Of a DNA stretch of 64,000 bases, positions 50,765 to 64,000 are shown piece by piece. The number at the start of each line of letters is the position of its first letter. The first letter of the stretch is position 1. The position numbers and the translations under genes were made by a program. Source of the DNA: Opitutia bacterium (lineage in GTDB: Bacteria > Verrucomicrobiota > Verrucomicrobiia > Opitutales > T3Sed10-336); contig PWMU01000050.1 of the NCBI GenBank assembly GCA_003558065.1, positions 11,656-75,655 on the forward strand, given 5' to 3'. The notes under the pieces were generated by a model, which saw only the letters and a program-made list of their open reading frames with translations, did no database searches and was not told where the DNA came from.

Positions 50765-51904
50765 TCAGCGTTTCGCTTCCTCCCGCTCAATAATATCCCA
50801 GGATTTTTCGATATAGAAACGGTAGTTCGCCAGCGGGGTTCCGTTCGGGATGCGGTGGTCGATGCCGAGTATGCAGCCGCCGGTGCGAACCATGGGCGGG
50901 ATCTTGTACTCCAGTTCCGCCGTGATGGCGGCTTGGTCCTTTCGCAGGACGTGCTTGTCGATGCCGCCCTGGAAGGCCAGGCGGGAGCCGTACTGTTCGC
51001 GGAGCTTCACAATGTCGTTGCCCCCGACGGGCTCCACGGGGCCCATCACGTTGAGGCCGGCCTCCAGAAAGCTTGGGATCAGTTTAGTCATGTCGCCGTC
51101 GGAGTCCTGGTAGAAGAGGCGGACCCCCCGGGCGCTCACGAGATCCCAGAGCCGGCGGTAATAGGGCACGATGTAGGCGTCCACCTGCTTCGGGCCGATC
51201 AGGGGACCGTTCTTTCCGGCCATGTCCTCGTGGATGTTGAGCTGGTCCACTGCAACTCGTGAAGTGACTCGGTCGAGGGTCCGGTGAGCGACGTCGCCGA
51301 TCGTTTCCAGCATCTCCCCGATCAGATCGGGCTGGGTGTAGAAGCTGATGCAGAGCTGTTCCTCGCCCATAAGCTGGCGAAGCTCGTCGAATCCGCCCGG
51401 AATCTTCGCCACAACGACCTTGCCCTCCTCGCGGGCGCGTTGGGCCGCAGCCTCCCAGCCTTCTTCGAATCGCTCTTCGGAAAAGGCATAGTGTTCCTTT
51501 ACCGCAAGCCAGGTGTCGCGGTCCTTGACCGGGTGATCCATCGGCAGCGGAAGGGTGGAGGCCTTCTTGGACAGCTTCATCTTCCGCCCCATTTTGTCGA
51601 GGGCGATGACGTAGTCCGCGGTTTCCTCAAGGATGGTGGTTTCCGGCCCCCCGATCCAGCCGGTGTGGACCGGGACCGAGGCCAGGATCGGGCTGCGGAA
51701 ACGAAACGCGGAAAAGTCCAGTTCCTCGGGGGTTGCGCCCTGTTGCGCCCATTCCTCCCGAAGGCCGGCAAGGGGGCCGAAGACTTCGGTAAAGAGCGTC
51801 CGCTGATTCCGGCGGAAGGTCATGTAATCGAGGTACTCCTCGCGCCGCACTCCCATGGTGCGTTTGATGGCCAGGGCGGCATGGGTTTCGCGAATGTCGT
51901 TCAT
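50765..51904 (-). CDS. Uroporphyrinogen-decarboxylase-family methyltransferase (MtaA/CmuA-like)
   Basis: 379 aa. The C-terminal GGCILGIDHRIPNGTP resembles the URO-D family GHGI motif. 4-nt overlap with the upstream activase gene. It is the last gene of the corrinoid operon. Confidence 0.6.
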   Translation of the reverse strand: MNDIRETHAALAIKRTMGVRREEYLDYMTFRRNQRTLFTEVFGPLAGLREEWAQQGATPEELDFSAFRFRSPILASVPVHTGWIGGPETTILEETADYVIALDKMGRKMKLSKKASTLPLPMDHPVKDRDTWLAVKEHYAFSEERFEEGWEAAAQRAREEGKVVVAKIPGGFDELRQLMGEEQLCISFYTQPDLIGEMLETIGDVAHRTLDRVTSRVAVDQLNIHEDMAGKNGPLIGPKQVDAYIVPYYRRLWDLVSARGVRLFYQDSDGDMTKLIPSFLEAGLNVMGPVEPVGGNDIVKLREQYGSRLAFQGGIDKHVLRKDQAAITAELEYKIPPMVRTGGCILGIDHRIPNGTPLANYRFYIEKSWDIIEREEAKR

Positions 51905-53466
51905 AGTTTTTCTGCTTTCTCGGGGGGTGATGCCCGCGAGGTTGCCGGTTTGCCCGGGAAGGTCATTTCTTCAACGAAAGTGTCCTGGAATCCCGGGTCC
52001 TGGCTGAGGGAGACGTGGACCACGCGTTTGCGAAGCGATTCGCAGGCCGATTCCGGATTTTCGGCGAAAAGGGAGATCTTGGCTCCCAGGAGAGCCGTGT
52101 TTCCCGAGGGGCGAAGCGCCTTGTCCGGGAAAGGCAGCAGCCCGATACGCAGGGCGCTGTCGAGACGAAGATAGTTGCCGAAGGCGCCCGCCATGAAGAC
52201 GTCGGTCAGGTTACGGGGGCGGATGTCGTTGGCGCGCATCAGGATCTTTGCCCCGGCCGCGATGGCGCCTTTGGCGAGCTGCAACTCGCGAATATCGCAC
52301 TGGTGGAGTTGCACGGGCGAAGAGAGAACCCAATTCTTTCCGCCGTGGGCGAAGCGGCCGTTGGGCAGAATCATGCCGAGATCGAGCCCCGCCGCCACCG
52401 CGTCCACCAGCCCGCTGCCGCAGATGCCGCGCGGGTCGACATCCCCGATCACACGGCAGCGCCAGGACTTCGCGCAGGGAACAACCTCCGCAATCGCGCC
52501 GGTGGACGCCCGCATTCCCATGGTGATGCGGGCCCCCTCGAAGGCGGGTCCCGCCGCTGTGGAGGCGCACACCATGCGGGAGCGATTGCCCACCACGACT
52601 TCGCCGTTTGTGCCGAGATCGAGAAAGACACCGGGCTTTTCGCGCCGGTCGAAACCCACCGCCAGCAGCCCCGCAAGGATGTCGCTGCCGACGAATCCTC
52701 CTATACACGGGAGAAAAACGACCGGGCAGCCGGCGGGGAGGCCGTTCCATCCCAGCCTTCCGGCGTCGAATCGCAGGGTGCCGGTGGCCTGCGTCTCGAA
52801 GGGGTAGCGCGAGAGCGGTTCCGTGTTGAGGCCGCCGAACAGGTGATGCATGGCGGTGTTTCCAACAAGGATCATCCGGTTGACGCGTTCCGCCTTTTCG
52901 GGGCCGGCTGCGGCAAGCAGATCCCTGACGAGTTCCGCAAGCTGTTTTCGGATGAGATTGGTGAGCGTGGTTCGGCCCTCAAATGTCATTGAGAATTCGA
53001 TACGACTCATAAGATCCGCGCCGAATCTGGCCTGGCGGTTGAGACCGCTTCGAACCGCGAGTACGTTGCCGTTTTCGAGGTCGACCAATTGGGCCACGAG
53101 GGTGGTGGTGCCGACATCGACCGCGATGCCGCATCCCGGGCGGGGAGAAAAAATGAAGTCGGTGTTGTCTCCCAGGACGGCGGCTTCCCATTGAGCCAGC
53201 TCGAGGGTCAGGTCGCTCTCGGCCCGGTGCCGGCAGGAGAGGCGCCAGCCGGCATTGACCCGGGAGTCGCCCAGGAGCCGGCGCTCCCCGGGGAACGCCG
53301 GCAGCCGTCCCTCCAGGACCCGGACACGGCAGCCTTTGCAGCGTCCCCGTCCGCCGCAGGGAAACTCGACGCCCTCCGCAAAAAGGGCATTGGCAAGCGG
53401 CGTGCCGGCGGGAACCGGAATGGTCTTGTCCAGTGGACGGAGCCGAATCAGAACGGAATTCTCCAT
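51901..53466 (-). CDS. Corrinoid reductive-activation enzyme (2Fe-2S ferredoxin domain + ASKHA/DUF4445 ATPase; RamA/RACE-like)
   Basis: ATG 53466 gives MENSVLIRLRPLDKTIPVPAGTPLANALFAEGVEFPCGGRGRCKGCRV (plant-type ferredoxin). GIAVDVGTTT...DLGTNGE are actin-fold phosphate motifs. Confidence 0.7.
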   Translation of the reverse strand: MENSVLIRLRPLDKTIPVPAGTPLANALFAEGVEFPCGGRGRCKGCRVRVLEGRLPAFPGERRLLGDSRVNAGWRLSCRHRAESDLTLELAQWEAAVLGDNTDFIFSPRPGCGIAVDVGTTTLVAQLVDLENGNVLAVRSGLNRQARFGADLMSRIEFSMTFEGRTTLTNLIRKQLAELVRDLLAAAGPEKAERVNRMILVGNTAMHHLFGGLNTEPLSRYPFETQATGTLRFDAGRLGWNGLPAGCPVVFLPCIGGFVGSDILAGLLAVGFDRREKPGVFLDLGTNGEVVVGNRSRMVCASTAAGPAFEGARITMGMRASTGAIAEVVPCAKSWRCRVIGDVDPRGICGSGLVDAVAAGLDLGMILPNGRFAHGGKNWVLSSPVQLHQCDIRELQLAKGAIAAGAKILMRANDIRPRNLTDVFMAGAFGNYLRLDSALRIGLLPFPDKALRPSGNTALLGAKISLFAENPESACESLRKRVVHVSLSQDPGFQDTFVEEMTFPGKPATSRASPPEKAEKL

Positions 53467-53492
53467 AGGGCTTAAGCTGCGGGACTCCTTTC

Positions 53493-54869
53493 TCAGGTGA
53501 GGCCGTATTCTTCCGGTAGATACGCGTTCGCGGGTATTTCTCCGGCCATGGCTTCGCGCATTTCGGCTTCGGTTTCGGGCAACTCGGTGACGGCGGATTC
53601 CATGCGTCCCAGCCACCGGGCCTCCCGGGGGGTCAGGTTCAGTGCCGCTTTCCGGTGCGCCCGGTCAAGGATCCGCCAGCCCGCACGGGCCGCGCGGATC
53701 GTTCGTTCGTAGGTTGTGGCTCCCGTCAGGATCTCCTCCGAAATTTCCAGGACGATGTCGGGCCGCAGCACGTAGGCCTGCGGGTCGAGAGAAGCATCGG
53801 ACGAGGCCAGCCAATCGCGCAGCGAGCGCGCGGCCTCCGGGGAGTCGTCCAAGGCGGCGTTGGCCAGCCGGCAATCATAGGCGAGCTGTTCCATGGATAC
53901 CACCGGTGCGTAACCGCTGAGCAGCCGAACATTGGCTACGGATTCGTTCGACCAGCAGTCGCAGACAGCTTGCGCGATGTTGCCGAGCGGGCTGGAGTGC
54001 GCGCAGGCGGACGAGCGGCCTTCCATCGAAATGGGAACCCCGGCGATGGCCTTCAGGAAGGGGCCTTCGTAGGCGCAGTCCTTGCTCGGCCCGCGGGCCC
54101 CCGTTTCAAAGGCGACCAGGCTTCGGGGAACGGAAATCACCCGTACCAATGCGGCGAATACCTTCGGGATCATCCCTTTCCACGCGAGCGTCATGGCCGT
54201 ATTGGCAAAGCCGCACGCCGTGTCCCCTGAAGGCACGACGTCCGTATTCCGGCAGCTCCGGACGATCTGTTCCCAGAGAAAGCCCATGTCGCGCGCGCCG
54301 AGAACCCCCAGGGCGAAAACGACGCGGCGGAGGTCCGCATTGACCAGGGCGTCATCACAGACCTCCTTGCCGCCCGTCGATTCAATGGCCAGAAGATCGG
54401 CGCCCGCCCGCCCGGCGCCGTCGAAGAAACGCACCATTTGCTCCCAGTGCTCGCCCCGGCGCATGAGCGGCGGCCGCCGGAATTCACGGGTGTCGTTGGG
54501 AGTGACCCGCAACGCCGTGGCGAGGCCGTGCCGATCGCTGAAGGCGGCGCAGTTCTCGGCGAGGATCCGGGTGATTTCCAGCCCCCATTCCGGAGTCTGC
54601 GTCATCGGCGGAAGCGTTTCGAACTCGACCACCACCGCGGGAACTTCCAGTTCGACCGCGTGGCGCAAAACGCCCCGGACCATCTCCTCGTACTGCCGCC
54701 GGATTTCATCCCAGTTGCGCCGGGTGACCTCGATTCCGGGCAGAGTGAAGTTGATTTCCGGAATCATGCGCCCCCCGCCGATTTCCACGCCTCGGCCGCA
54801 GGTGACCGGATGCGGTGCCCGTCCGAAGAGGAACGCGTCCAGCGATTCGACTGCCGGCTTGGTATTCAT
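53493..54869 (-). CDS. mtaB: Methanol:corrinoid methyltransferase MtaB-family protein
   Basis: It is colinear with my memory of Methanosarcina MtaB: IPEINF, IESTGGKEV, SGDTACGFANTAM, ISVPRSLVAFETGARGPSKDCAYE, MEGRSSACAHS, CDCWSNESV, LAYDCRLAN, DPQAYVL. ATG 54869. Confidence 0.75.
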   Translation of the reverse strand: MNTKPAVESLDAFLFGRAPHPVTCGRGVEIGGGRMIPEINFTLPGIEVTRRNWDEIRRQYEEMVRGVLRHAVELEVPAVVVEFETLPPMTQTPEWGLEITRILAENCAAFSDRHGLATALRVTPNDTREFRRPPLMRRGEHWEQMVRFFDGAGRAGADLLAIESTGGKEVCDDALVNADLRRVVFALGVLGARDMGFLWEQIVRSCRNTDVVPSGDTACGFANTAMTLAWKGMIPKVFAALVRVISVPRSLVAFETGARGPSKDCAYEGPFLKAIAGVPISMEGRSSACAHSSPLGNIAQAVCDCWSNESVANVRLLSGYAPVVSMEQLAYDCRLANAALDDSPEAARSLRDWLASSDASLDPQAYVLRPDIVLEISEEILTGATTYERTIRAARAGWRILDRAHRKAALNLTPREARWLGRMESAVTELPETEAEMREAMAGEIPANAYLPEEYGLT

Positions 54870-54891
54870 TGACCCGGGTGCGGGCGGATCG

Positions 54892-55527
54892 CTACGAGGC
54901 GACCAGTTTCCGGGCGATGCCGACCGCCGTGGCGGCACTGTCTCCGTAGGAATCGGCGCCGATTTCTTCGGCGTATTCGCGGGTGATCGGCGCGCCGCCG
55001 ATCATAATCTTCACGTTGCCGCGCACACCGGCTTCGTTGAGGGCCTCGATGGTGTTCTTCATTGACGGCATCGTCGTGGTCAGGAGAGCGGACATCGCCA
55101 CGATATCCGCCGATTCGTCCCGAATGGCTTCGATGAATTTCTCCGCTGAGACGTCGACACCGAGGTCGATGACTTCGAATCCCCCGCCTTCAAGCATGGC
55201 CGCGACCAGGTTCTTGCCGATGTCGTGAAGGTCGCCCTTGACGGTTCCGAGTACGACGCGTCCCTTCGGTTTTACCCCGGACGCCGTTAACAGGGGCCGG
55301 ATCTTCCCCAGGGCGCCCTTCATGGCGCGTGCGGCGATGAGCAACTCGGGCACGAAGAAATCGTTGGCTTCAAAGCGGCGCCCAACCTCGTCCATCGCCG
55401 GGATCATGTAGTCGTTAACCAGTGTTTGCGGATCCGTGCCCGCAGCCAGGGCTTCGTCCGTGACCGACCGGGCGGTATCGGCGTCGCCGTTCAGGACGGC
55501 GTCGTAAAGTTTGGTCCATTCGCTCAT
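54892..55527 (-). CDS. mtaC: Corrinoid (B12-binding) protein, MtaC/MtbC-like
   Basis: AAGGAG then ATG 55527. B12-binding-2 cap domain, then GTVKGDLHDIGKNLV (DxHxxG), ...MSALLTTTM..., GGAP. Confidence 0.85.
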   Translation of the reverse strand: MSEWTKLYDAVLNGDADTARSVTDEALAAGTDPQTLVNDYMIPAMDEVGRRFEANDFFVPELLIAARAMKGALGKIRPLLTASGVKPKGRVVLGTVKGDLHDIGKNLVAAMLEGGGFEVIDLGVDVSAEKFIEAIRDESADIVAMSALLTTTMPSMKNTIEALNEAGVRGNVKIMIGGAPITREYAEEIGADSYGDSAATAVGIARKLVAS

Positions 55528-55830
55528 TGAGTTATCTCCTTTTTCTCCAGTGGTGGACGCGGGACGTGACAGGACTCCAACTCTACCGGGTCCGGCGCCG
55601 GGGGTCTGCGCGAGGATTGTCAACGAAAGCGCAGATGTTGTCCGGCGTGCCGGTAGCTCTGAAATATACTTCCCTGCATCAAGTTTTCGGATTCTCCTGC
55701 CGCCCGTCTTCTAATTCATTCCCCTCTTGAGAGGGGGGACCAGCCGCAAGGCTGGTGGGGCGTGTCCGTTGCGCCGGCGATACCCATCGTTCCATCGATC
55801 TACTCGCTATATTCGAGTACCAGTCGTTCC

Positions 55831-57108: not shown

Positions 57109-58842
57109 TTGCAGGAATGGGGGGAACGGATTATTTTAGAAGCCGTGAGTGGACGACGACAGGAGAGAAACCGGGAGCCCGATAACCGACGCCGCGAGGA
57201 GGGGCCCGCCGACGCGCCGTTGAATCCCGAGGCGCGGCTCGAGCGGATGTCGGCGTTGCAGTTGATCGACCTGGTTTCCGGGCAGATGCGGGGGGCGGAA
57301 GCGGCGCCGCACCGGCCCTTGCGTCACCTCCGCTATCGCGTGCAGGAGCTCGAGGAGATTCGCGAACAGGCACAGGGTGCTTTGGCGGAGCTGAACGAGG
57401 CGGTGGAAAAGTTGCGCGCTCCGGCGTTGAGGCTGGGGACCTTGCTGCGGCGGATCGGCAGGGACCGGGCATTGATCTGCGTCGGCGGGGGTGAGTATGT
57501 CTGCAACCTTGACCCGTCGCTTCCCGAGGCGGTGCTGGAGAGCGGGATGCGGGTGCTCCTCAACGAAGCCTACGCGGTGACCGATTCCTTCGGCCTCGAC
57601 AAGAGCGGGCCGGTGGTCCGGTTGACCGAGGCGCTGTCCGACGGGCGCCTTCGGGTTGGCCAGGAGGCCGGAATATCGGATTCGGTGGTCATTCTCTCGG
57701 ACGCGTTGCGGAAGGAGACCTTGAAACCCGGCATGGAGTTGCGTCTCGACGCCAATCAGCGCGTGGCGGTCGAAATCGTCGCGCCGGCCCGAAAGTTCGA
57801 CCGGTCGCTGTCGACGGTCGAGCCGATTCTCTGGAGTGATATCGGGGGGCAGGATTCGGCGGTTCAGGCGATCCGCGATTCGATCGAGATGCCGATTCTG
57901 CACGCAAGCCTTTTCGAGCGTTTCGAGCACCCGGTACCCAAGGGCTTCCTGTTGTATGGACCGCCGGGATGCGGGAAAACCTTGTTGGGCAAGGCCACGG
58001 CTCATAACCTGCGCCGCCAGATCGAGGCCGAAACCGGCGAGGACCGGCCTGAATATTTCCTCAGCGTCAAGGGCCCCGAGATTCTCAACATGTGGGTCGG
58101 CGAATCGGAACGGCAGGTTCGCGAACTGTTTGGCCAGTGCCGGGAGAAGGCCGAAGAGGGGCACTTGGCGTTTCTCTTCATTGACGAGGCCGAGTCGGTT
58201 CTCGGCACCCGTCACGGGGGTCGCGTCGGGAACGCGATCATTTCGACGCTGGTACCGATGTTCTGTGCGGAGATGGACGGGATGGAAGCGTTGCGCAATG
58301 TCGTGGTGATCCTGGCGTCCAACCGGGCCGACCTCATCGACCCCGCCATCCTCCGTCCCGGCCGGATCGATCGCAAGATTCGCGTCCGTCGCCCGAACCG
58401 CGAGGCGGGCAGGGAAATTTACAGCATTTACCTGAACGAACGGCTTCCCGTGGCGGAAGAGCGCGACCGTCTAATCGAGGCGGTGACCGAAGCCCATTTT
58501 GCGGAGAGCGAGGAAAACCGCTTCCTCGAGGTCGGCTACCGAAGCGGACGCAAGGAATACCTTCACCGCGGCGATCTTGCAAGCGGCGCGATAATCGCCG
58601 CCATCGTGGAGCGGGCCAAGGAGCTGGCGATCAAGCGGAGCGTGCTTACCGGCTCGGAGTCGGGGATTACACGCGAGGATTTGCTGACCGCTTTCGAGCA
58701 CGAGTACCGCGAGAACGAACTTTTCCCCCCGACCGATATTACGGAGGACTGGCTCAAACTCACCGATTTCGATCCGGAGAACGTCGTGCGATTGACCCCT
58801 TACCGCCAGCGTAGCGACAGGGAACGGCAGACCTCGATATGA
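57109..58842 (+). CDS. mpa: Proteasome-associated AAA ATPase (Mpa/ARC homologue)
   Basis: Walker A LLYGPPGCGKTLLGKA, Walker B AFLFIDEAESV, ILRPGRIDRKIRV. N-terminal heptad segment LRYRVQELEEIREQAQGALAELNEAVEKLRAP, then an OB-like region, colinear with my memory of M. tuberculosis Mpa. The track start is TTG 57109. GTG 57145 or ATG 57247 are equally possible. Confidence 0.85.
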   Translation: MQEWGERIILEAVSGRRQERNREPDNRRREEGPADAPLNPEARLERMSALQLIDLVSGQMRGAEAAPHRPLRHLRYRVQELEEIREQAQGALAELNEAVEKLRAPALRLGTLLRRIGRDRALICVGGGEYVCNLDPSLPEAVLESGMRVLLNEAYAVTDSFGLDKSGPVVRLTEALSDGRLRVGQEAGISDSVVILSDALRKETLKPGMELRLDANQRVAVEIVAPARKFDRSLSTVEPILWSDIGGQDSAVQAIRDSIEMPILHASLFERFEHPVPKGFLLYGPPGCGKTLLGKATAHNLRRQIEAETGEDRPEYFLSVKGPEILNMWVGESERQVRELFGQCREKAEEGHLAFLFIDEAESVLGTRHGGRVGNAIISTLVPMFCAEMDGMEALRNVVVILASNRADLIDPAILRPGRIDRKIRVRRPNREAGREIYSIYLNERLPVAEERDRLIEAVTEAHFAESEENRFLEVGYRSGRKEYLHRGDLASGAIIAAIVERAKELAIKRSVLTGSESGITREDLLTAFEHEYRENELFPPTDITEDWLKLTDFDPENVVRLTPYRQRSDRERQTSI

Positions 58843-58912
58843 ACGCTTACAGTTTCGGGACGATTCTCACGGGTCGCCCGACAGAAGCTGGAGGCACGCT
58901 GATGGAGAAAAA

Positions 58913-60448
58913 GTGGAGATACAATTCGGTATAGAAACGGAGTACGGAATCAGCCGGCAGCAGGAGCAACCGATCGACGTGGTGGCCGAGTCCATCGCGC
59001 TGGTCCGGAGCGCCGTTTCGCCGGGCGTGCGCATGTGCTGGGACTACTCAAAGGAGGACCCGCATCTCGATATGCGCGGGTTCCGGGTCCAGGAATTGCG
59101 GCAGGACACCGACGAAACCTTTTATTCGGCCGAGGACGTACGGCGCCAGCTGACTTTCCGCGAGATCAAAAGCGACTTGGTGCTCTCGAACGGAGCCCGT
59201 TTCTACAACGATCATGCCCACCCGGAGTACTGCACCCCGGAATGCACCACGCCGCTTGAGATCCTCCAGCAGGAAGTGGTGGGTGAGCGCATACTGACGG
59301 GATGTGCCCTTGCCCTGCAGGAAAAGACCGGAGTGCCGGTTTTGCTTTATAAAAACAACACCGACTTTTTCGGGCACAGTTACGGCTGCCACGAGAATTA
59401 TTTGATCCCGAGAACCCTCCCTTGGGCGAAGCTCTCCGAGAATATTCTGGCATTCCTGGTTACCCGGCAGCTCTATTGCGGAGCGGGAAAATACGCATGG
59501 GAGGAAGAGGACCGGTTTCTCAAGGGAAGATTCCAGATTTCCCAGAGAAGCGATTTTTTCACAGTGCTCCAAAGTGTGGATACGATGCAGCGGCGGCCGC
59601 TGATCAATACGCGGGACGAACCCCACGCGGACGCCGGACGGTTTCGGCGTTTTCATGTTATCCTGGGCGACTCCAACCTCTCTCCGTACGCGGCCTACTT
59701 GAAGATTGGAGTGACCGCGCTGGTTCTGCAGGCTCTGTGCCGCGCCGGACCGGGAGCGCGGGTGCCGCGACTGGACAAACCGATCGATGCGGTGAAAGCG
59801 ATCTCTCGCGACACCGCTTTCCGCTGGGAGATCAACCGGGAGGACGGCCGCCCGACAAACGCGATCGAGGTCCAACGGAGTTACCTGATGCTGGTCCGCC
59901 GTTACCTGTTTGAGAGTGACGGCGAGGAATGGCGGCGCGTTACCGATGCCTGGGAGGAGATTCTGAATGATCTTGATGCCGATCCGCTGTCCACCGCGGA
60001 TCGCCTGGACTGGAGCGCCAAGTACCGGCTCATCGAGGACTTTCGCGACCGGGAAGGCGTCGAGTTGGACGATCCCTGGGTGCGGAGCCTCGACCTTGCC
60101 TACCACCGTCTGGATCCGGACGAGGGCCTTTACCTCAACCTGATGGACCAGGGGGCGTTTCGGCTGCCTTATTCCGCCGCAGAGATCTATGAAAAGGGGC
60201 TGGAGCCGCCGGCGAGCACCCGTGCGGCGGTACGGGGGCTTTGCGTGAAGAAGTTCGGCCCCCGGATTTATGAAACGCAGTGGGAGCACCTGGGGTTCCA
60301 GGGTGAAACCACCGGCCGCTTCATTCTCGATCTGCGCGACCTGTTTGCTCCGGGGGATATCGCGAAAGCGATTCGGTTTATTGAGGGCACCGAACGGGTC
60401 GACGATTTGAGAGCGCTTCCGTTTGCAAAAGAGCGAAATCGCGGTTAA
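58913..60448 (+). CDS. dop: Dop-like Pup-ligase-family enzyme (deamidase/depupylase homologue)
   Basis: GTG start, VEIQFGIETEYG. The insertion RMCWDYSKEDPHLDMRGFRV matches the Dop-specific loop (Mtb Dop RTRWDYEVESPLRDARGF, from memory). HAHPEYCTPEC, YKNNTD..GHSYGCHENY, FQISQRSDF, INTRDEPHAD. Confidence 0.85.
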   Translation: MEIQFGIETEYGISRQQEQPIDVVAESIALVRSAVSPGVRMCWDYSKEDPHLDMRGFRVQELRQDTDETFYSAEDVRRQLTFREIKSDLVLSNGARFYNDHAHPEYCTPECTTPLEILQQEVVGERILTGCALALQEKTGVPVLLYKNNTDFFGHSYGCHENYLIPRTLPWAKLSENILAFLVTRQLYCGAGKYAWEEEDRFLKGRFQISQRSDFFTVLQSVDTMQRRPLINTRDEPHADAGRFRRFHVILGDSNLSPYAAYLKIGVTALVLQALCRAGPGARVPRLDKPIDAVKAISRDTAFRWEINREDGRPTNAIEVQRSYLMLVRRYLFESDGEEWRRVTDAWEEILNDLDADPLSTADRLDWSAKYRLIEDFRDREGVELDDPWVRSLDLAYHRLDPDEGLYLNLMDQGAFRLPYSAAEIYEKGLEPPASTRAAVRGLCVKKFGPRIYETQWEHLGFQGETTGRFILDLRDLFAPGDIAKAIRFIEGTERVDDLRALPFAKERNRG

Positions 60449-60457
60449 ATTTTCTTT

Positions 60458-60637
60458 ATGGCTGATCCAACCAGACGAGTAAAACCAACCGCCCCCTCGC
60501 CGGGCGGGGGAGGAGACGACGGAGGCGGTCCTTCTTCCCCGAAAGTCAACAAGCCAAAAACGGAGGAGCTTCTCAAGAAGATGCGCAAGGTCGATCCTGA
60601 CCAGTCCCGCCGCTACCGGCAACGGACCGGGGAGTGA
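60458..60637 (+). CDS. ubact: Pup-like small protein modifier, UBact type (59 aa)
   Basis: Not in the ORF track (<60 aa). ATG 60458 lies 9 nt after the dop stop, and the TGA is at 60635..60637. MADPTRRVKPTAPSPGGGGDDGGGPSSPKVNKPKTEELLKKMRKVDPDQSRRYRQRTGE has a Gly/Pro-rich disordered N-terminal half, a basic helical C-terminal half and a terminal Gly-Glu. It occupies the exact pup position between dop and prcB. Confidence 0.8.
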   Translation: MADPTRRVKPTAPSPGGGGDDGGGPSSPKVNKPKTEELLKKMRKVDPDQSRRYRQRTGE

Positions 60638-60830
60638 CCGGCAGGTGATCCCGCCGCTTTCCCGCCTTGCGTTTTGCTCCCCTAACGGGGATGTTGCCCG
60701 TTGCGGGTCTGCGGGTGCGGGTTTCAGACGCCGGAATCCTTATTCTCTCCCACACCTGCGAAACCCGGCCCTCAACCCTTGCCCGTCCTCGACACCCTGA
60801 AACCAGAAACCTGACGCCCGCGCATCCGCC

Positions 60831-61592
60831 ATGAACGGAGACTTCCTCTCCCTCCTCTCATCGAATCCGTTTTCCGGCCTTACGGTCGGCGAAAACTGTC
60901 CCCAGTTGCTCGAGGCGACCACGGTGTTCGCCTTCCATTTTTCCGAGGGCGTGGTCATGGCGGGCGACCATCGCGCGACCGCTGGGAACGTGGTGTTTTC
61001 CGATCGAACGGAGAAGATAATCGAGCTGGACAATCAGTCTCTGATCGCCATCGCGGGATCGCCGGCGGTGGCTTTCGAGATGGCACGAACGCTGCAAACG
61101 ACTTTCGAGTTCTACCGGCGAAGCCAACTGCAGGTACTCAGCCTCCCGGCCAAAGTCCGGGCGTTGTCGCGTCTCCTCCGCGACAACCTCCCGGGAACGC
61201 TCCAGGGGGTGGGCGCGGTTGCGCCGCTCTTTGCGGGGAGGGAGCCGGACGGCGATTCACCGCCGGGCATTTACTACTACGATCCGCTGGGCGCGCAGTT
61301 CGAGGCCGCCGGTTACGCGGCTTCCGGGTCCGGGTCCGGCAGTATTCGCAGCGTTCTTCACTACTTGACCCAATGGGGGAATCCGCGACCGGAGAAAAGG
61401 GATCGCGGCGAGGCGATCAACCTGGCCAACCGGCTCCTGCTGACCGCCGCCCAGTTCGATACCGCCACCGGCGGGGTCGATCCGTCCCGGCAGGTTTTCG
61501 CCACCATCCGGCTCCTCACCGCCGACGGCATTCATACGGTGACCGAGAAAGAGCAGGCGGCGGCCTGGAAGAAGGGAGGGGCCAATGATTGA
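60831..61592 (+). CDS. prcB: Proteasome beta subunit (PrcB) with a 29-aa propeptide
   Basis: ...QLLEA|TTVFAFHFSEGVVMAGDHRATAGNVVFSDRTEKII. Numbering from the first Thr (codon at 60918..60920) gives Thr1, Asp17 and Lys33, the canonical Ntn-hydrolase triad. SGSGS is present further on. Confidence 0.85.
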   Translation: MNGDFLSLLSSNPFSGLTVGENCPQLLEATTVFAFHFSEGVVMAGDHRATAGNVVFSDRTEKIIELDNQSLIAIAGSPAVAFEMARTLQTTFEFYRRSQLQVLSLPAKVRALSRLLRDNLPGTLQGVGAVAPLFAGREPDGDSPPGIYYYDPLGAQFEAAGYAASGSGSGSIRSVLHYLTQWGNPRPEKRDRGEAINLANRLLLTAAQFDTATGGVDPSRQVFATIRLLTADGIHTVTEKEQAAAWKKGGAND

Positions 61593-62310
61593 AGAACCGT
61601 ACCGGTGGCTCGAAGCGGTGGCCAACCGTCGCGAGTACATCCAGGACCAGCTCAGCGGTGCCACGCCGGTATTCGCCGTTTCCCGTCCCGAAGGGGTTTT
61701 CCTGCTCGGTGCGGGCCCCGGACGGTCGAAAGTGTTCGAGATCTACAACCGTCACGGCATGGCCGCCCTCGGCAATCCGGTCGATATCGAGAAGCTGCGC
61801 CAGGCAGTCATTGAAACCGCTCACCTCGAGGGGTTTAACCGGTCGGCGGACGATGTGACCCTGCGGCGCCTGGTCGGGTTTTCCATAAGTAATTCCCTCA
61901 AGAGCGCGTTCGAACAGATCGTCGCCGCGCCGCTCATTGTCGAGGCCCTCTTTGCCGAATGCGGGGCGACCCGCGAGGAGGACCTTCTCGTGCGGGTCCG
62001 CTTCGACGGGAGGCCGGAATACGCGACGGACGGTGTCTGCCTCGCATTTCCCGACCGTGATCGCGAGCGCGCCGCCGGCGAGTGGTTGCGGGGCCGATTG
62101 AGCGACTCGGACGGCCTCGGCCGGGTACGCGGGCTTTGCCTCACGGCCTGGTCGGCCCTGGTGGACGGCAAGGAGGATTTCGAAGCATTGAAGGTTCAGG
62201 AACCCCTTCCTTCCTCGCTCGCGAAACACGGCCTGGAAAGTGCCCTGATCGACCGGGCGAGCCCGGGGCCGGCCCAGTACCGGTCGCTTGCCGAAGGGGA
62301 GTTTCAGTAG
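61585..62310 (+). CDS. prcA: Proteasome alpha subunit (PrcA)
   Basis: 8-nt overlap with prcB. 241 aa with no N-terminal Thr. PVFAVSRPEGVFLLG...KVFEIYNRHGMAALGNPVDIEKLRQ is consistent with bacterial alpha subunits. The call rests mostly on position and weak similarity. Confidence 0.7.
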   Translation: MIEEPYRWLEAVANRREYIQDQLSGATPVFAVSRPEGVFLLGAGPGRSKVFEIYNRHGMAALGNPVDIEKLRQAVIETAHLEGFNRSADDVTLRRLVGFSISNSLKSAFEQIVAAPLIVEALFAECGATREEDLLVRVRFDGRPEYATDGVCLAFPDRDRERAAGEWLRGRLSDSDGLGRVRGLCLTAWSALVDGKEDFEALKVQEPLPSSLAKHGLESALIDRASPGPAQYRSLAEGEFQ

Positions 62311-62362
62311 GGCGTCCCGGGCTTGCGAGGCAGGTCCGGGCGCGCATAATCCGGGAGCGGGC

Positions 62363-63772
62363 ATGAATCACGGAAACGGCAATGGAAAGCGGGTGATCGG
62401 CCTGGAAACCGAATACGGTTGTCTTGCCGACCGCGACCTCGACCTGAGTCAGGTTTTGACCGAGGTTCGGAACTGGGTGTTCGAAGGCGGGCGCTTCGGG
62501 ATGATCGACCTGTATGAGCGCGAATGGGATGAGCCGGCGGGAAACGGGGGGTTTCTGTTCAACGGCGGGAGGCTCTACATCGACATGGGCCACATCGAGT
62601 ACTGCACGCCCGAATGTCTGAACGCCCGCGACGCCGTGCGTTACGACCGGGCGGGGGACCGGTTGCTGCAGACGGCAGTCCGGGCGCTGGGCTACGAAGG
62701 GCGGGTATTCTTCATTCGGAACAACATCGATCATCACACCGGCGCTACCTTCGGGTGCCATGAGAACTTCTCGATGGACCGTCTGGCTCCTTTCAGTGAA
62801 GCCAATATTCTTTCACTGCTCGCGTTCCTGACGCTCCGCCTCCTGTACACGGGAGCGGGTCGCGTGGGGGCCGCGGGGGGGCGTTTTTCGGTCGGTTGGC
62901 CCGACCAGGAGCCCGTCTTCGAGGGATTTCAATTGAGCCAGCGGGCGGATTATGTGCAGAACGATTTCTACGAGTGGGTGCAGCACAACCGTGCCATCGT
63001 CAATACGCGGGACGAGCCGCTTGCGGACCCTCTTGCTTACAGACGCCTTCACCTGCTTCACGGCGATACGAATGTCTTTCCGGCTACCACTTTCCTTAAG
63101 CTCGGGACGACCAGGCTGGTTCTTGACCTTCTCGAAGCCGATGCGCTTCCGCCGGTGGTCCTGCAGGATGCGGTGAGCGCTTTGCGCCGGATTTCGCGCC
63201 AGACCGATCCTCCCTGGCGGGTGCGTGACAGCCGTGGGCGGGAACGGGATGTGATTGATCTTCTGGACCGTTACCGGCGCGCGGCCGCCAGGTGCTTTTC
63301 CGGGCGCAATGAGGAAACGGATACGCTTCTGGAATTATGGGGGGACACCCTTGAGGGCCTCGCCCGCGGTGATGCCGGGGAGCTTGCCGGCCGAATCGAC
63401 TGGGTCGGCAAGCGCGAGCTGCTCGATGCTTTTCGCCGCGAGCAGGGGCTGGGTTGGAACGATCCCTGGATGCAGTCCCAGGATCTTGAGTTTCATCACA
63501 TTGATCCCCAGCGCGGACTCGGCTGCGCGTTGGCGGATTGCGACGGATTTTGGGCGACCGGTTGTATTGAAAATGCCATGACAGAGCCGCCCGAGGGATC
63601 AAGGGCCGGGGCCCGGAGCCGTCTGATGCGGGAAATTGAAAAGTCCGGCGGCCGTTATCACCTCGACTGGGACAGGGTCAATTTCCCGGGCGGCCGGACC
63701 TTTTGCATGAAGGATCCCTTCGAGACCCGCGCCGATCACCAGGAGACGTCCGGGTCGACGTCCTTTTCGTAG
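62363..63772 (+). CDS. pafA: PafA-like modifier ligase (Pup-ligase family)
   Basis: KRVIGLETEYG. No Dop-type loop. FLFNGGRLYIDMGHIEYCTPEC, GATFGCHENF, FQLSQRADY, VNTRDEPLAD. The C-terminal FCMKDPF is like Mtb PafA LCKDPF (memory). ATG 62363 is preferred over track start 62288, which overlaps prcA. Confidence 0.85.
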   Translation: MNHGNGNGKRVIGLETEYGCLADRDLDLSQVLTEVRNWVFEGGRFGMIDLYEREWDEPAGNGGFLFNGGRLYIDMGHIEYCTPECLNARDAVRYDRAGDRLLQTAVRALGYEGRVFFIRNNIDHHTGATFGCHENFSMDRLAPFSEANILSLLAFLTLRLLYTGAGRVGAAGGRFSVGWPDQEPVFEGFQLSQRADYVQNDFYEWVQHNRAIVNTRDEPLADPLAYRRLHLLHGDTNVFPATTFLKLGTTRLVLDLLEADALPPVVLQDAVSALRRISRQTDPPWRVRDSRGRERDVIDLLDRYRRAAARCFSGRNEETDTLLELWGDTLEGLARGDAGELAGRIDWVGKRELLDAFRREQGLGWNDPWMQSQDLEFHHIDPQRGLGCALADCDGFWATGCIENAMTEPPEGSRAGARSRLMREIEKSGGRYHLDWDRVNFPGGRTFCMKDPFETRADHQETSGSTSFS

Positions 63773-64000
63773 TCGATTCCCGGCATCCCGAAGCCGAAGA
63801 GCTGGTGGAAGTCGCTCTTGTAGCCTTCGATGTCGGTCACTGTGCGAATGTTTTCGGTCGTGACCTGGTCCCAGAGCGCCGCGACTTCTTTTTGAACATC
63901 CCCGCGCATCTCGAGATCGTCGAGCCGGACGCGGCCCCGGTCGTCAAAGTTGAGCGCGCGATGATTGTACATTTGCGTGGCGAGCAGACGGTGCATCTGC
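63736..64000 (-). CDS. fabV: Enoyl-ACP/CoA reductase FabV, C-terminal part (5' end beyond the window)
   Basis: ...RLDDLEMRGDVQKEVAALWDQVTTENIRTVTDIEGYKSDFHQLFGFGMPGIDYEKDVDPDVSW* matches the FabV/TER C-terminus (memory). The frame is open to the window edge. It converges on pafA with a 37-nt overlap. Confidence 0.7.
   Translation of the reverse strand, partial: QMHRLLATQMYNHRALNFDDRGRVRLDDLEMRGDVQKEVAALWDQVTTENIRTVTDIEGYKSDFHQLFGFGMPGIDYEKDVDPDVSW

Follow-up and report, generated by a model that had tools for sequence, protein, structure and literature searches.

Results

The UBact-proteasome locus

A 64-kb stretch of verrucomicrobial DNA (hereafter the window) carries the genes of a UBact-proteasome system on its (+) strand, at 57109-63772. 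Six co-directional genes follow one another there in the order ATPase-Dop-UBact-PrcB-PrcA-PafA. This order is kept across about 35 related genome loci, and the arrangement is a conserved cluster, not a product of chance. By analogy with the Pup enzymes of actinobacteria, we consider it likely that the cluster is a complete UBact-proteasome system in which paralogue 1 (P1), a Dop homologue, would de-conjugate, and paralogue 2 (P2), on the PafA side of the same enzyme family, would ligate, a UBact modifier that ends in Glu. P1 and P2 are the only members of the Pup-ligase family in the window. A first-pass annotation of this DNA had drawn attention to a modifier ending in Glu and adjoined by a retained Dop paralogue, and we found that terminus, as well as the two paralogues where they had been placed. 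The genes and features on which the argument turns are the following.

58913..60448, + strand: P1, Dop homologue, 511 amino acids, PF03136 match; 416.7 bits on the Dop model TIGR03688 versus 327 on the PafA model
59024..59176, + strand: Dop-loop of P1, approximately residues 38-88 (about 51 residues), placed by alignment to 4b0r and by multiple alignment
60458..60637, + strand: UBact, 59 amino acids, MADPTRRVKPTAPSPGGGGDDGGGPSSPKVNKPKTEELLKKMRKVDPDQSRRYRQRTGE; NF033388 82.5 bits (cutoff 35), PF20513 79.8 bits (cutoff 27.8)
62363..63772, + strand: P2, divergent UBact-lineage enzyme, predicted UBact ligase, PF03136 match
62519..62536, + strand: stub R53-E-W-D-E-P58 in P2, at the site where the Dop-loop starts (Dop R46-W47-D...P54)
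62948..62992, + strand: alpha-loop region of P2, D196-R210, DYVQNDFYEWVQHNR, unlike the Dop and PafA consensus

The modifier is assigned to UBact

To judge from its profile matches, the modifier is UBact (NF033388, PF20513) and not canonical actinobacterial Pup. A Pfam scan of the 59-residue open reading frame (ORF) to E=10 returned UBact only and no Pup-family match, and the NCBIfam Pup model gave no match up to E=0.01. The earlier description of the modifier as Pup is therefore replaced. The protein ends in RQRTGE (final codons CGG ACC GGG GAG TGA), and the RYRQRTGE end is identical in four independent assemblies (L001-L004: ENA, NCBI and two Logan runs). Its T-G-E terminus departs from the canonical G-G-[QE] of Pup and agrees with the broader G[EQ] pattern given by Iyer et al. 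2008. The UBact family has a C-terminal half that is basic and near-invariant over relatives (KKMRKVDPDQ[AS][RK]RYRQRTG[EQ]), and the window protein, ending RRYRQRTGE, carries the C-terminal motif of that family. Its gene lies between the Dop homologue and prcB, as expected for the family.

Relatives of UBact, a name reportedly coined by Lehmann et al. in 2017, are encoded in at least 545 GTDB species, mostly Verrucomicrobiota and Poribacteria; a few metagenome-assembled genomes (MAGs) labelled Latescibacterota and Limnocylindria are among the 80 loci that we kept. The first to note the UBact-type gene neighbourhood were Iyer, Burroughs and Aravind (2008; PMC2588565), who reported from verrucomicrobia and nitrospirae that Pup-like genes with a G[EQ] end stand beside two PafA paralogues. 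The proteins of the window are 100% identical to those of contig SKVV01000027.1 (assembly GCA_007129275.1), from an uncultured Verrucomicrobia MAG, and UBact is left uncalled in the public gene calls of that contig, where a gap stands between the Dop and PrcB genes (8096-8275 in L001/L002). The exact 59-residue sequence is likewise absent from a collection of 15 billion proteins. UBact is probably under-annotated in MAGs.

Paralogue 1 is of the Dop type

The paralogues were compared with characterised enzymes in a multiple alignment of Acidothermus Dop (AcDop), Corynebacterium glutamicum PafA (CgPafA), and 35 P1-type and 38 P2-type proteins from the genome loci, with 22 discriminating positions taken from Table 1 of Hecht et al. 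2020. The AcDop and CgPafA sequences were rebuilt from PDB alignments, with residue counts and a 100% match to protein P0245 as checks. An alignment of this kind, with the loop scored, had been proposed as a check by the first-pass annotation; it returns P1 as Dop-type at most positions and P2 as a mosaic. Both paralogues retain the common catalytic set, namely the glutamates of the GhExE motif and the equivalents of R90, Y92, D94, H155, R227 and W453.

We classify P1 as a Dop-type protein on the agreement of the NCBIfam model, the PDB match, the discriminating residues, the tree and the profiles. Its score on TIGR03688 lies under the Dop equivalog cutoff (416.7 vs 492.3 bits), with Dop still the top-scoring model, and its best PDB match is AcDop (4b0r, 1e-100). 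The Dop-type loop that had been ascribed to the first paralogue is confirmed: the segment W43-DYSKEDPHLDMRG-F57 (nucleotides 59039-59083) aligns with W47-DFEEENPLRDARGF of AcDop (HMMER, 4b0r), and the loop has the 40-65 residues before strand beta2 that mark a Dop-loop. P1 residues W43 and Y45 are aligned to W47 and F49 of AcDop, which are the key Dop-loop residues according to Cui et al. 2021 (PMC8599861). The catalytic-loop motif of P1, YNDHAHPEYCTPE (N-D-H-A-H-P-E-Y-C-T-P), follows the Dop signature D-H-A-H-P-E-Y-S-T-P and is free of the PafA insertion, and its D-H pair is present in 35/35 P1-type relatives.

Most of the positions of Hecht et al. 2020 are also Dop-type in P1, including S27, V31, the Dop-loop, the equivalents of F208 and P103, and V211, together with the D at position 216 and the R at position 220. 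P1 differs from actinobacterial Dop within the alpha-loop (T218 to M, G214 to S), and these differences are common to all P1-type proteins, in loci with a Glu-ended (E-type) and a Gln-ended (Q-type) modifier alike. By analogy with Dop, P1 is a predicted UBact de-conjugase, and in Q-type relatives a predicted deamidase as well.

Paralogue 2, a predicted ligase on the PafA side

The P2 gene starts at ATG 62363, giving 469 amino acids identical to public protein P0001; the ORF is readable from TTG 62288, the start that had been implied earlier and that we correct here. At its other end (63772) the gene overlaps by 37 nucleotides with the 3' end of a convergent gene at 63736-63996 (-), which encodes a FabV-type enoyl-ACP reductase (Eno-Rase Pfam domains, seen in L001), and a terminator-like hairpin (63745-63762) lies inside the overlap.

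The catalytic residues E15, E17, R70, Y72, D74, H133 and R216 are conserved in P2. About 40 residues of the Dop-loop are missing, the loop region measuring 27 residues in P2, 62 in P1 and 16 in CgPafA. The absence of the loop, as noted earlier, thus holds for the larger part of it, but an REWDEP stub remains. In 39 homologues R53, W55, D56 and E57 of this stub are invariant and P58 is nearly so (at least 90%), and the stub looks like the remnant of a partly deleted Dop-loop that keeps the key Trp. P2 is PafA-type at the equivalents of F41, F54 and D439, and so is the hydrophobic-Gly pair that follows its catalytic Asp. The PafA-like C-terminus that had been claimed for it is present as a DPF motif at the PafA-conserved position, but [DE]-P stands there in most Dop representatives too, and the motif appears only weakly diagnostic of PafA.

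Two loops set P2 apart. Its catalytic loop reads I-D-M-G-H-I-E-Y-C-T-P, which departs from the PafA signature L-D-V-G-S-H-P-E-Y-A-T-A, and its alpha-loop reads Y-V-Q-N-D-F-Y-E-W-V-Q-H-N versus H-x-W-E-G-x-S-S-A-T-T-R-S in PafA, so that the PafA-type pattern is lacking. The alpha-loop is strictly conserved among P2-type proteins. In sequence, P2 falls between the signatures that Hecht et al. 2020 defined for Dop and for PafA.

For the phylogeny, a CgPafA search of 50%-identity representatives found 1367 family members at E<=1e-30; 114 near-full-length proteins among the best 150 of these served as the reference set and were classed by catalytic-loop motif and loop length. A single P2-type representative occurs among the best 150 matches, at 238 bits and amid Dop-type matches; P2 and Dop are not told apart by their raw similarity to actinobacterial PafA. 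A further protein, P0278, is a 'Pup--protein ligase' attributed to Staphylococcus chromogenes that is 63% identical to C. glutamicum PafA; the assembly is most likely contaminated with Corynebacterium.

An unrooted neighbour-joining (NJ) tree (Kimura distance, 444 columns, 153 sequences, 100 bootstraps) recovered the split (Dop+P1)|(PafA+P2) in 90/100 bootstraps and a monophyletic P2 clade in 100/100. An independent duplication in the UBact lineage, (P1+P2)|(Dop+PafA), was rejected with 3/100 bootstraps; a single clade holding both paralogues was the outcome that the first-pass annotation had named as speaking against its assignment. Hecht et al. 2020 found that Dop and PafA of Actinobacteria and Nitrospirae form two well-supported clusters, and placed the root at single-copy planctomycete homologues that are partly alignable with the Dop-loop.

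Profile comparisons gave the same division. With hidden Markov models (HMMs) built from Dop-type and PafA-type representatives, the Dop HMM outscored the PafA HMM for 21/21 P1-type proteins (mean 498 vs 435 bits), and the reverse was seen for 22/22 P2-type proteins (mean 387 vs 332 bits); the window P2 itself scored 358 bits on the PafA HMM and 299 on the Dop HMM, a modest margin. By hhalign, P1 scored 1100 with Dop and 886 with PafA, and P2 scored 811 with PafA (449 columns) and 746 with Dop (362 columns).

Two other classifiers of P2 were tried and set aside. NCBIfam equivalog scores taken alone are ambiguous, with 269 bits full-length on the PafA model TIGR03686, under its cutoff of 551.3 bits, and 281 bits over a partial stretch on the Dop model. 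Structure comparison is uninformative: an AlphaFold2 (AF2) model of P2 with a predicted local distance difference test (pLDDT) score of 84.7 gave template modelling (TM) scores of 0.82 to Dop and 0.80 to PafA structures, and the alpha-loop shows no helix in the model and a pLDDT of only about 60.

On the tree and the profiles, the assignment of P1 to Dop and of P2 to the PafA side stands, with P2 less PafA-like than had been assumed. Its sequence marks P2 as a divergent relative on the PafA side that forms a distinct clade, and not as a canonical PafA.

Several observations weigh against this placement and the ligase role that we predict from it. In Kimura distance the P2 clade is roughly equidistant from Dop (1.42), PafA (1.49) and P1 (1.37), and the unrooted NJ tree leaves a strict, rooted PafA orthology of P2 unproven; the nearest possible outgroups share only about 13% identity. 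Of the 22 discriminating positions, about 3-5 are PafA-like in P2, about 2-3 are Dop-like, and the others are unique. The Ser insertion after the catalytic Asp is lacking, as in Dop (DMGH vs DVGSH), the A74 position holds a Dop-type Pro, DEPLAD stands in place of DEPHAD, and the Thr-Thr pair of the Dop and PafA alpha-loop is V-Q in the window P2 and V/I-Q in P2-type proteins. The slightly higher score on the NCBIfam Dop model and the equal match of the AF2 model to Dop and PafA structures point the same way. Finally, a search of the accessible literature found no biochemical or experimental study of UBact conjugation or de-conjugation, and the activities are therefore carried over from the Pup enzymes of actinobacteria, at approximately 30-40% identity. 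The sequences show the gene identities, the Dop/PafA split, the conservation of catalytic residues and the frequency of the E state; we infer every enzyme activity discussed here, the ligase role of P2 most of all.

Given these features, P2 could instead represent a class of its own in the Pup-ligase family, functionally the third, for example with mixed ligase and hydrolase activity or a different handling of its substrate. This would fit the monophyly of the P2 clade and its distance from both Dop and PafA, the mostly unique residues at the discriminating positions, the Dop-loop stub with its invariant Trp, the conserved alpha-loop unlike that of either enzyme, and the mixed Dop-PafA reaction that Hecht et al. 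obtained from an engineered intermediate. However, a UBact modifier, whether it ends in Glu or Gln, needs a ligase, and apart from P1 the family is represented in the locus and in the window by P2 alone; P2 occupies the pafA position behind prcA, the profiles put all 22 P2-type proteins on the PafA side, and the core residues for ATP-dependent phosphorylation are present. We therefore regard a third class as unlikely. The more specific version, in which conserved loops that match neither Dop nor PafA would catalyse a mixed reaction or engage the basic UBact tail in another way, seems slightly less probable still. If a third class were real, the division of labour between Dop and PafA would not be simply transferable to UBact systems.

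Glu and Gln termini interchange while Dop is kept

The terminal residue was surveyed in the 120 nearest 90%-identity UBact clusters and in 80 species-level genome loci, the best of at least 545 species. All 120 clusters end in RTGQ or RTGE, 110 with Q and 10 with E. Among the 80 loci, 38 are E-ended and 42 Q-ended, a count of E that may lean slightly upward, the loci having been ranked by similarity to an E-type query. The E codons GAA and GAG differ by one base from the Q codons CAA and CAG, and Fitch parsimony on an NJ tree of the adjacent PrcB requires at least 10 Q/E changes.

In 27/27 E-type loci for which the upstream region is available, UBact follows a full-length Dop-like gene, and both paralogues are present in 26 of those. 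The E-type loci that have no Dop-like gene are truncated contigs or Chthoniobacterales loci, and in Chthoniobacterales UBact-PrcB-PrcA is separated from the enzymes whether the genome is E-type or Q-type. A Glu terminus is an ordinary and evolutionarily labile state in UBact systems, and Dop is retained with either terminus.

There is consequently no tension in a retained Dop, because E and Q interchange freely and Dop accompanies either; the oddity that the first-pass annotation had implied falls away. For Pup, Barandun et al. (PMC3511204) explained the retention of dop in Pup-Glu species such as C. glutamicum by the depupylase activity of Dop. A 2025 review (PMC12288473) notes that Pup-Glu is encoded in many species, which suggests that Dop's primary role there is depupylation, and adds that Dop also promotes Pup recycling. 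The prediction that the Dop-like enzyme acts as a de-conjugase, although it offers the best reading by analogy, is thus the textbook account and not a new inference, since it has been published for Pup-Glu species. A Glu-ended tag beside a retained Dop-type enzyme is a common arrangement that has already been explained.

It had also been proposed that the two enzymes have diverged to new roles. In Glu-type lineages both would then have changed function, the Dop homologue, for example, having lost its amidase activity or gained another once deamidation was no longer required. The score of P1 below the NCBIfam Dop equivalog cutoff (417 vs 492 bits) and its departures from actinobacterial Dop in the alpha-loop (T218 to M, G214 to S) could be taken in this sense. 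Those departures are, however, shared by E-type and Q-type loci, the catalytic residues and the Trp and aromatic residues of the Dop-loop are intact, and the 10 or more Q/E switches were not accompanied by loss of Dop. When 8 E-type and 7 Q-type loci from verrucomicrobia (15 in all) were compared, E and Q were not separated by any conserved column of either paralogue; disjoint residue sets were confined to hypervariable columns, 4 in P1 and 6 in P2. Nothing in these sequences points to a neofunctionalisation linked with the terminal residue, and we consider new roles very improbable. That an error of assembly or sequencing turned a Gln codon into the terminal Glu (CAG to GAG) deserves almost no credence: the two states are a single base apart and most of the nearest clusters have Q, but RTGE is found in four independent assemblies and in the closest species-level relative (L005), and the E state recurs in 38/80 species.

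Discussion

In the model that we favour, of a Dop homologue that de-conjugates and a PafA-side enzyme that ligates UBact, P2 would use ATP to phosphorylate the terminal Glu of UBact on its gamma-carboxylate, and would then transfer UBact onto lysines of substrates. The ATPase would recognise the UBact tag and feed tagged substrates into the 20S core. P1 would hydrolyse the isopeptide bond, which would make tagging reversible and spare UBact from co-degradation. Deamidation would be skipped in this organism because UBact is made with Glu, and the Dop-type enzyme would be kept for de-conjugation; in Q-type relatives the same P1 would deamidate the tag first.

The system agrees with the UBact-proteasome system of Gram-negative phyla in its modifier models, gene order, RYRQRTG[EQ] end and Verrucomicrobia host. 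Nothing of substance differs from these relatives; the window belongs to the E-ended minority (10/120), and its UBact is uncalled publicly.

The actinobacterial Pup-Glu system, as in C. glutamicum (PupE, PafA and Dop), follows the same logic, with a Glu terminus ready for ligation, a ligase on the PafA side and a retained Dop that has its Dop-loop and serves as de-conjugase and recycler. It differs in several respects. The window modifier is not detectably of the Pup family and its C-terminal half is basic, not acidic, and its ligase-side enzyme comes from a distinct, divergent clade in which several PafA-specific residues are missing. C. glutamicum is not known to have the 20S genes, in contrast to the window locus.

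The Pup-Gln system of M. tuberculosis and M. smegmatis shares the enzyme families and the coupling to a proteasome, and mycobacterial Dop is bifunctional, acting as deamidase and depupylase. In the window there is no need for deamidation, and the modifier family and the ligase clade are different. The Q-type UBact relatives (110/120 clusters) presumably work like the mycobacterial system.

The combination of a Glu tag and a retained Dop is already known for Pup and is routine in UBact systems, and the P2-type clade is the one point worth following. This distinct and uncharacterised clade of ligase-side enzymes is a possible natural test case for the hydrolase-to-ligase pathway of Hecht et al. 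2020. In addition, natural Q/E pairs whose Dop homologues are near-identical are numerous among UBact loci, and they could help to show whether deamidation and de-conjugation are separable.

The proteasome genes and their surroundings

The remaining genes of the cluster are those of the ATPase and the 20S core.

57109..58842, + strand: proteasomal AAA+ ATPase (Mpa/ARC homologue); TIGR03689 pup_AAA 426 bits, under the 505-bit equivalog cutoff
60831..61592, + strand: 20S proteasome beta subunit (PrcB); TIGR03690 146 bits (cutoff 191.9), PF00227 match
61585..62310, + strand: 20S proteasome alpha subunit (PrcA), divergent; TIGR03691 55 bits (cutoff 139)

All of these, like the Dop and PafA homologues, score under the actinobacterial equivalog cutoffs. 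The ATPase has Pfam matches to Prot_ATP_ID_OB_N, Prot_ATP_ID_OB_C and AAA, and its start in public gene calls lies 36 nucleotides further downstream, giving 565 amino acids. PrcB has a propeptide and the Thr1 motif LLEA|TTVFAF. A Pfam scan gave no match for PrcA, whose position behind PrcB is kept in all related loci.

At about 30 UBact loci the ATPase C-terminus (58753-58842 in the window) follows the pattern ...[ST][SPG][VI][IV], for example TSI in the window and PVI in Poribacteria. The proteasome-docking tail of mycobacterial Mpa is GQYL, with an aromatic penultimate residue. To go by these tails, docking of the ATPase onto the 20S core in UBact loci may differ from that of mycobacterial Mpa.

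The closest species-level GTDB relative of the window is 'Verrucomicrobia bacterium T3Sed10_319', and remoter relatives are named Opitutales or Verrucomicrobiae. Gene order varies in two other groups. In Chthoniobacterales/Udaeobacter loci (L013, L027, L029, L038, L044, L053, L056, L058, L065, L070, L072, L082 and others) UBact, PrcB and PrcA alone are adjacent, and ATPase, Dop-like and PafA-like genes are absent within 10 kb on either side; there the cluster is split, or else the enzymes are missing. In Poribacteria (L010, L012, L014, L016, L025, L033, L034, L036 and L045) the PafA-like gene is found at a distance of 0.8-3.4 kb downstream of prcA and not immediately 3' of it, and other genes are inserted in the cluster.

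Just upstream of the proteasome cluster, at 51901-55623 on the (-) strand, lies a methanol:corrinoid methyltransferase set made up of a RACo-type corrinoid activase (Fer2/Raco_middle/RACo_C_ter), MtaB and a B12-binding corrinoid protein, which suggests methylotrophic metabolism in this Verrucomicrobia MAG.

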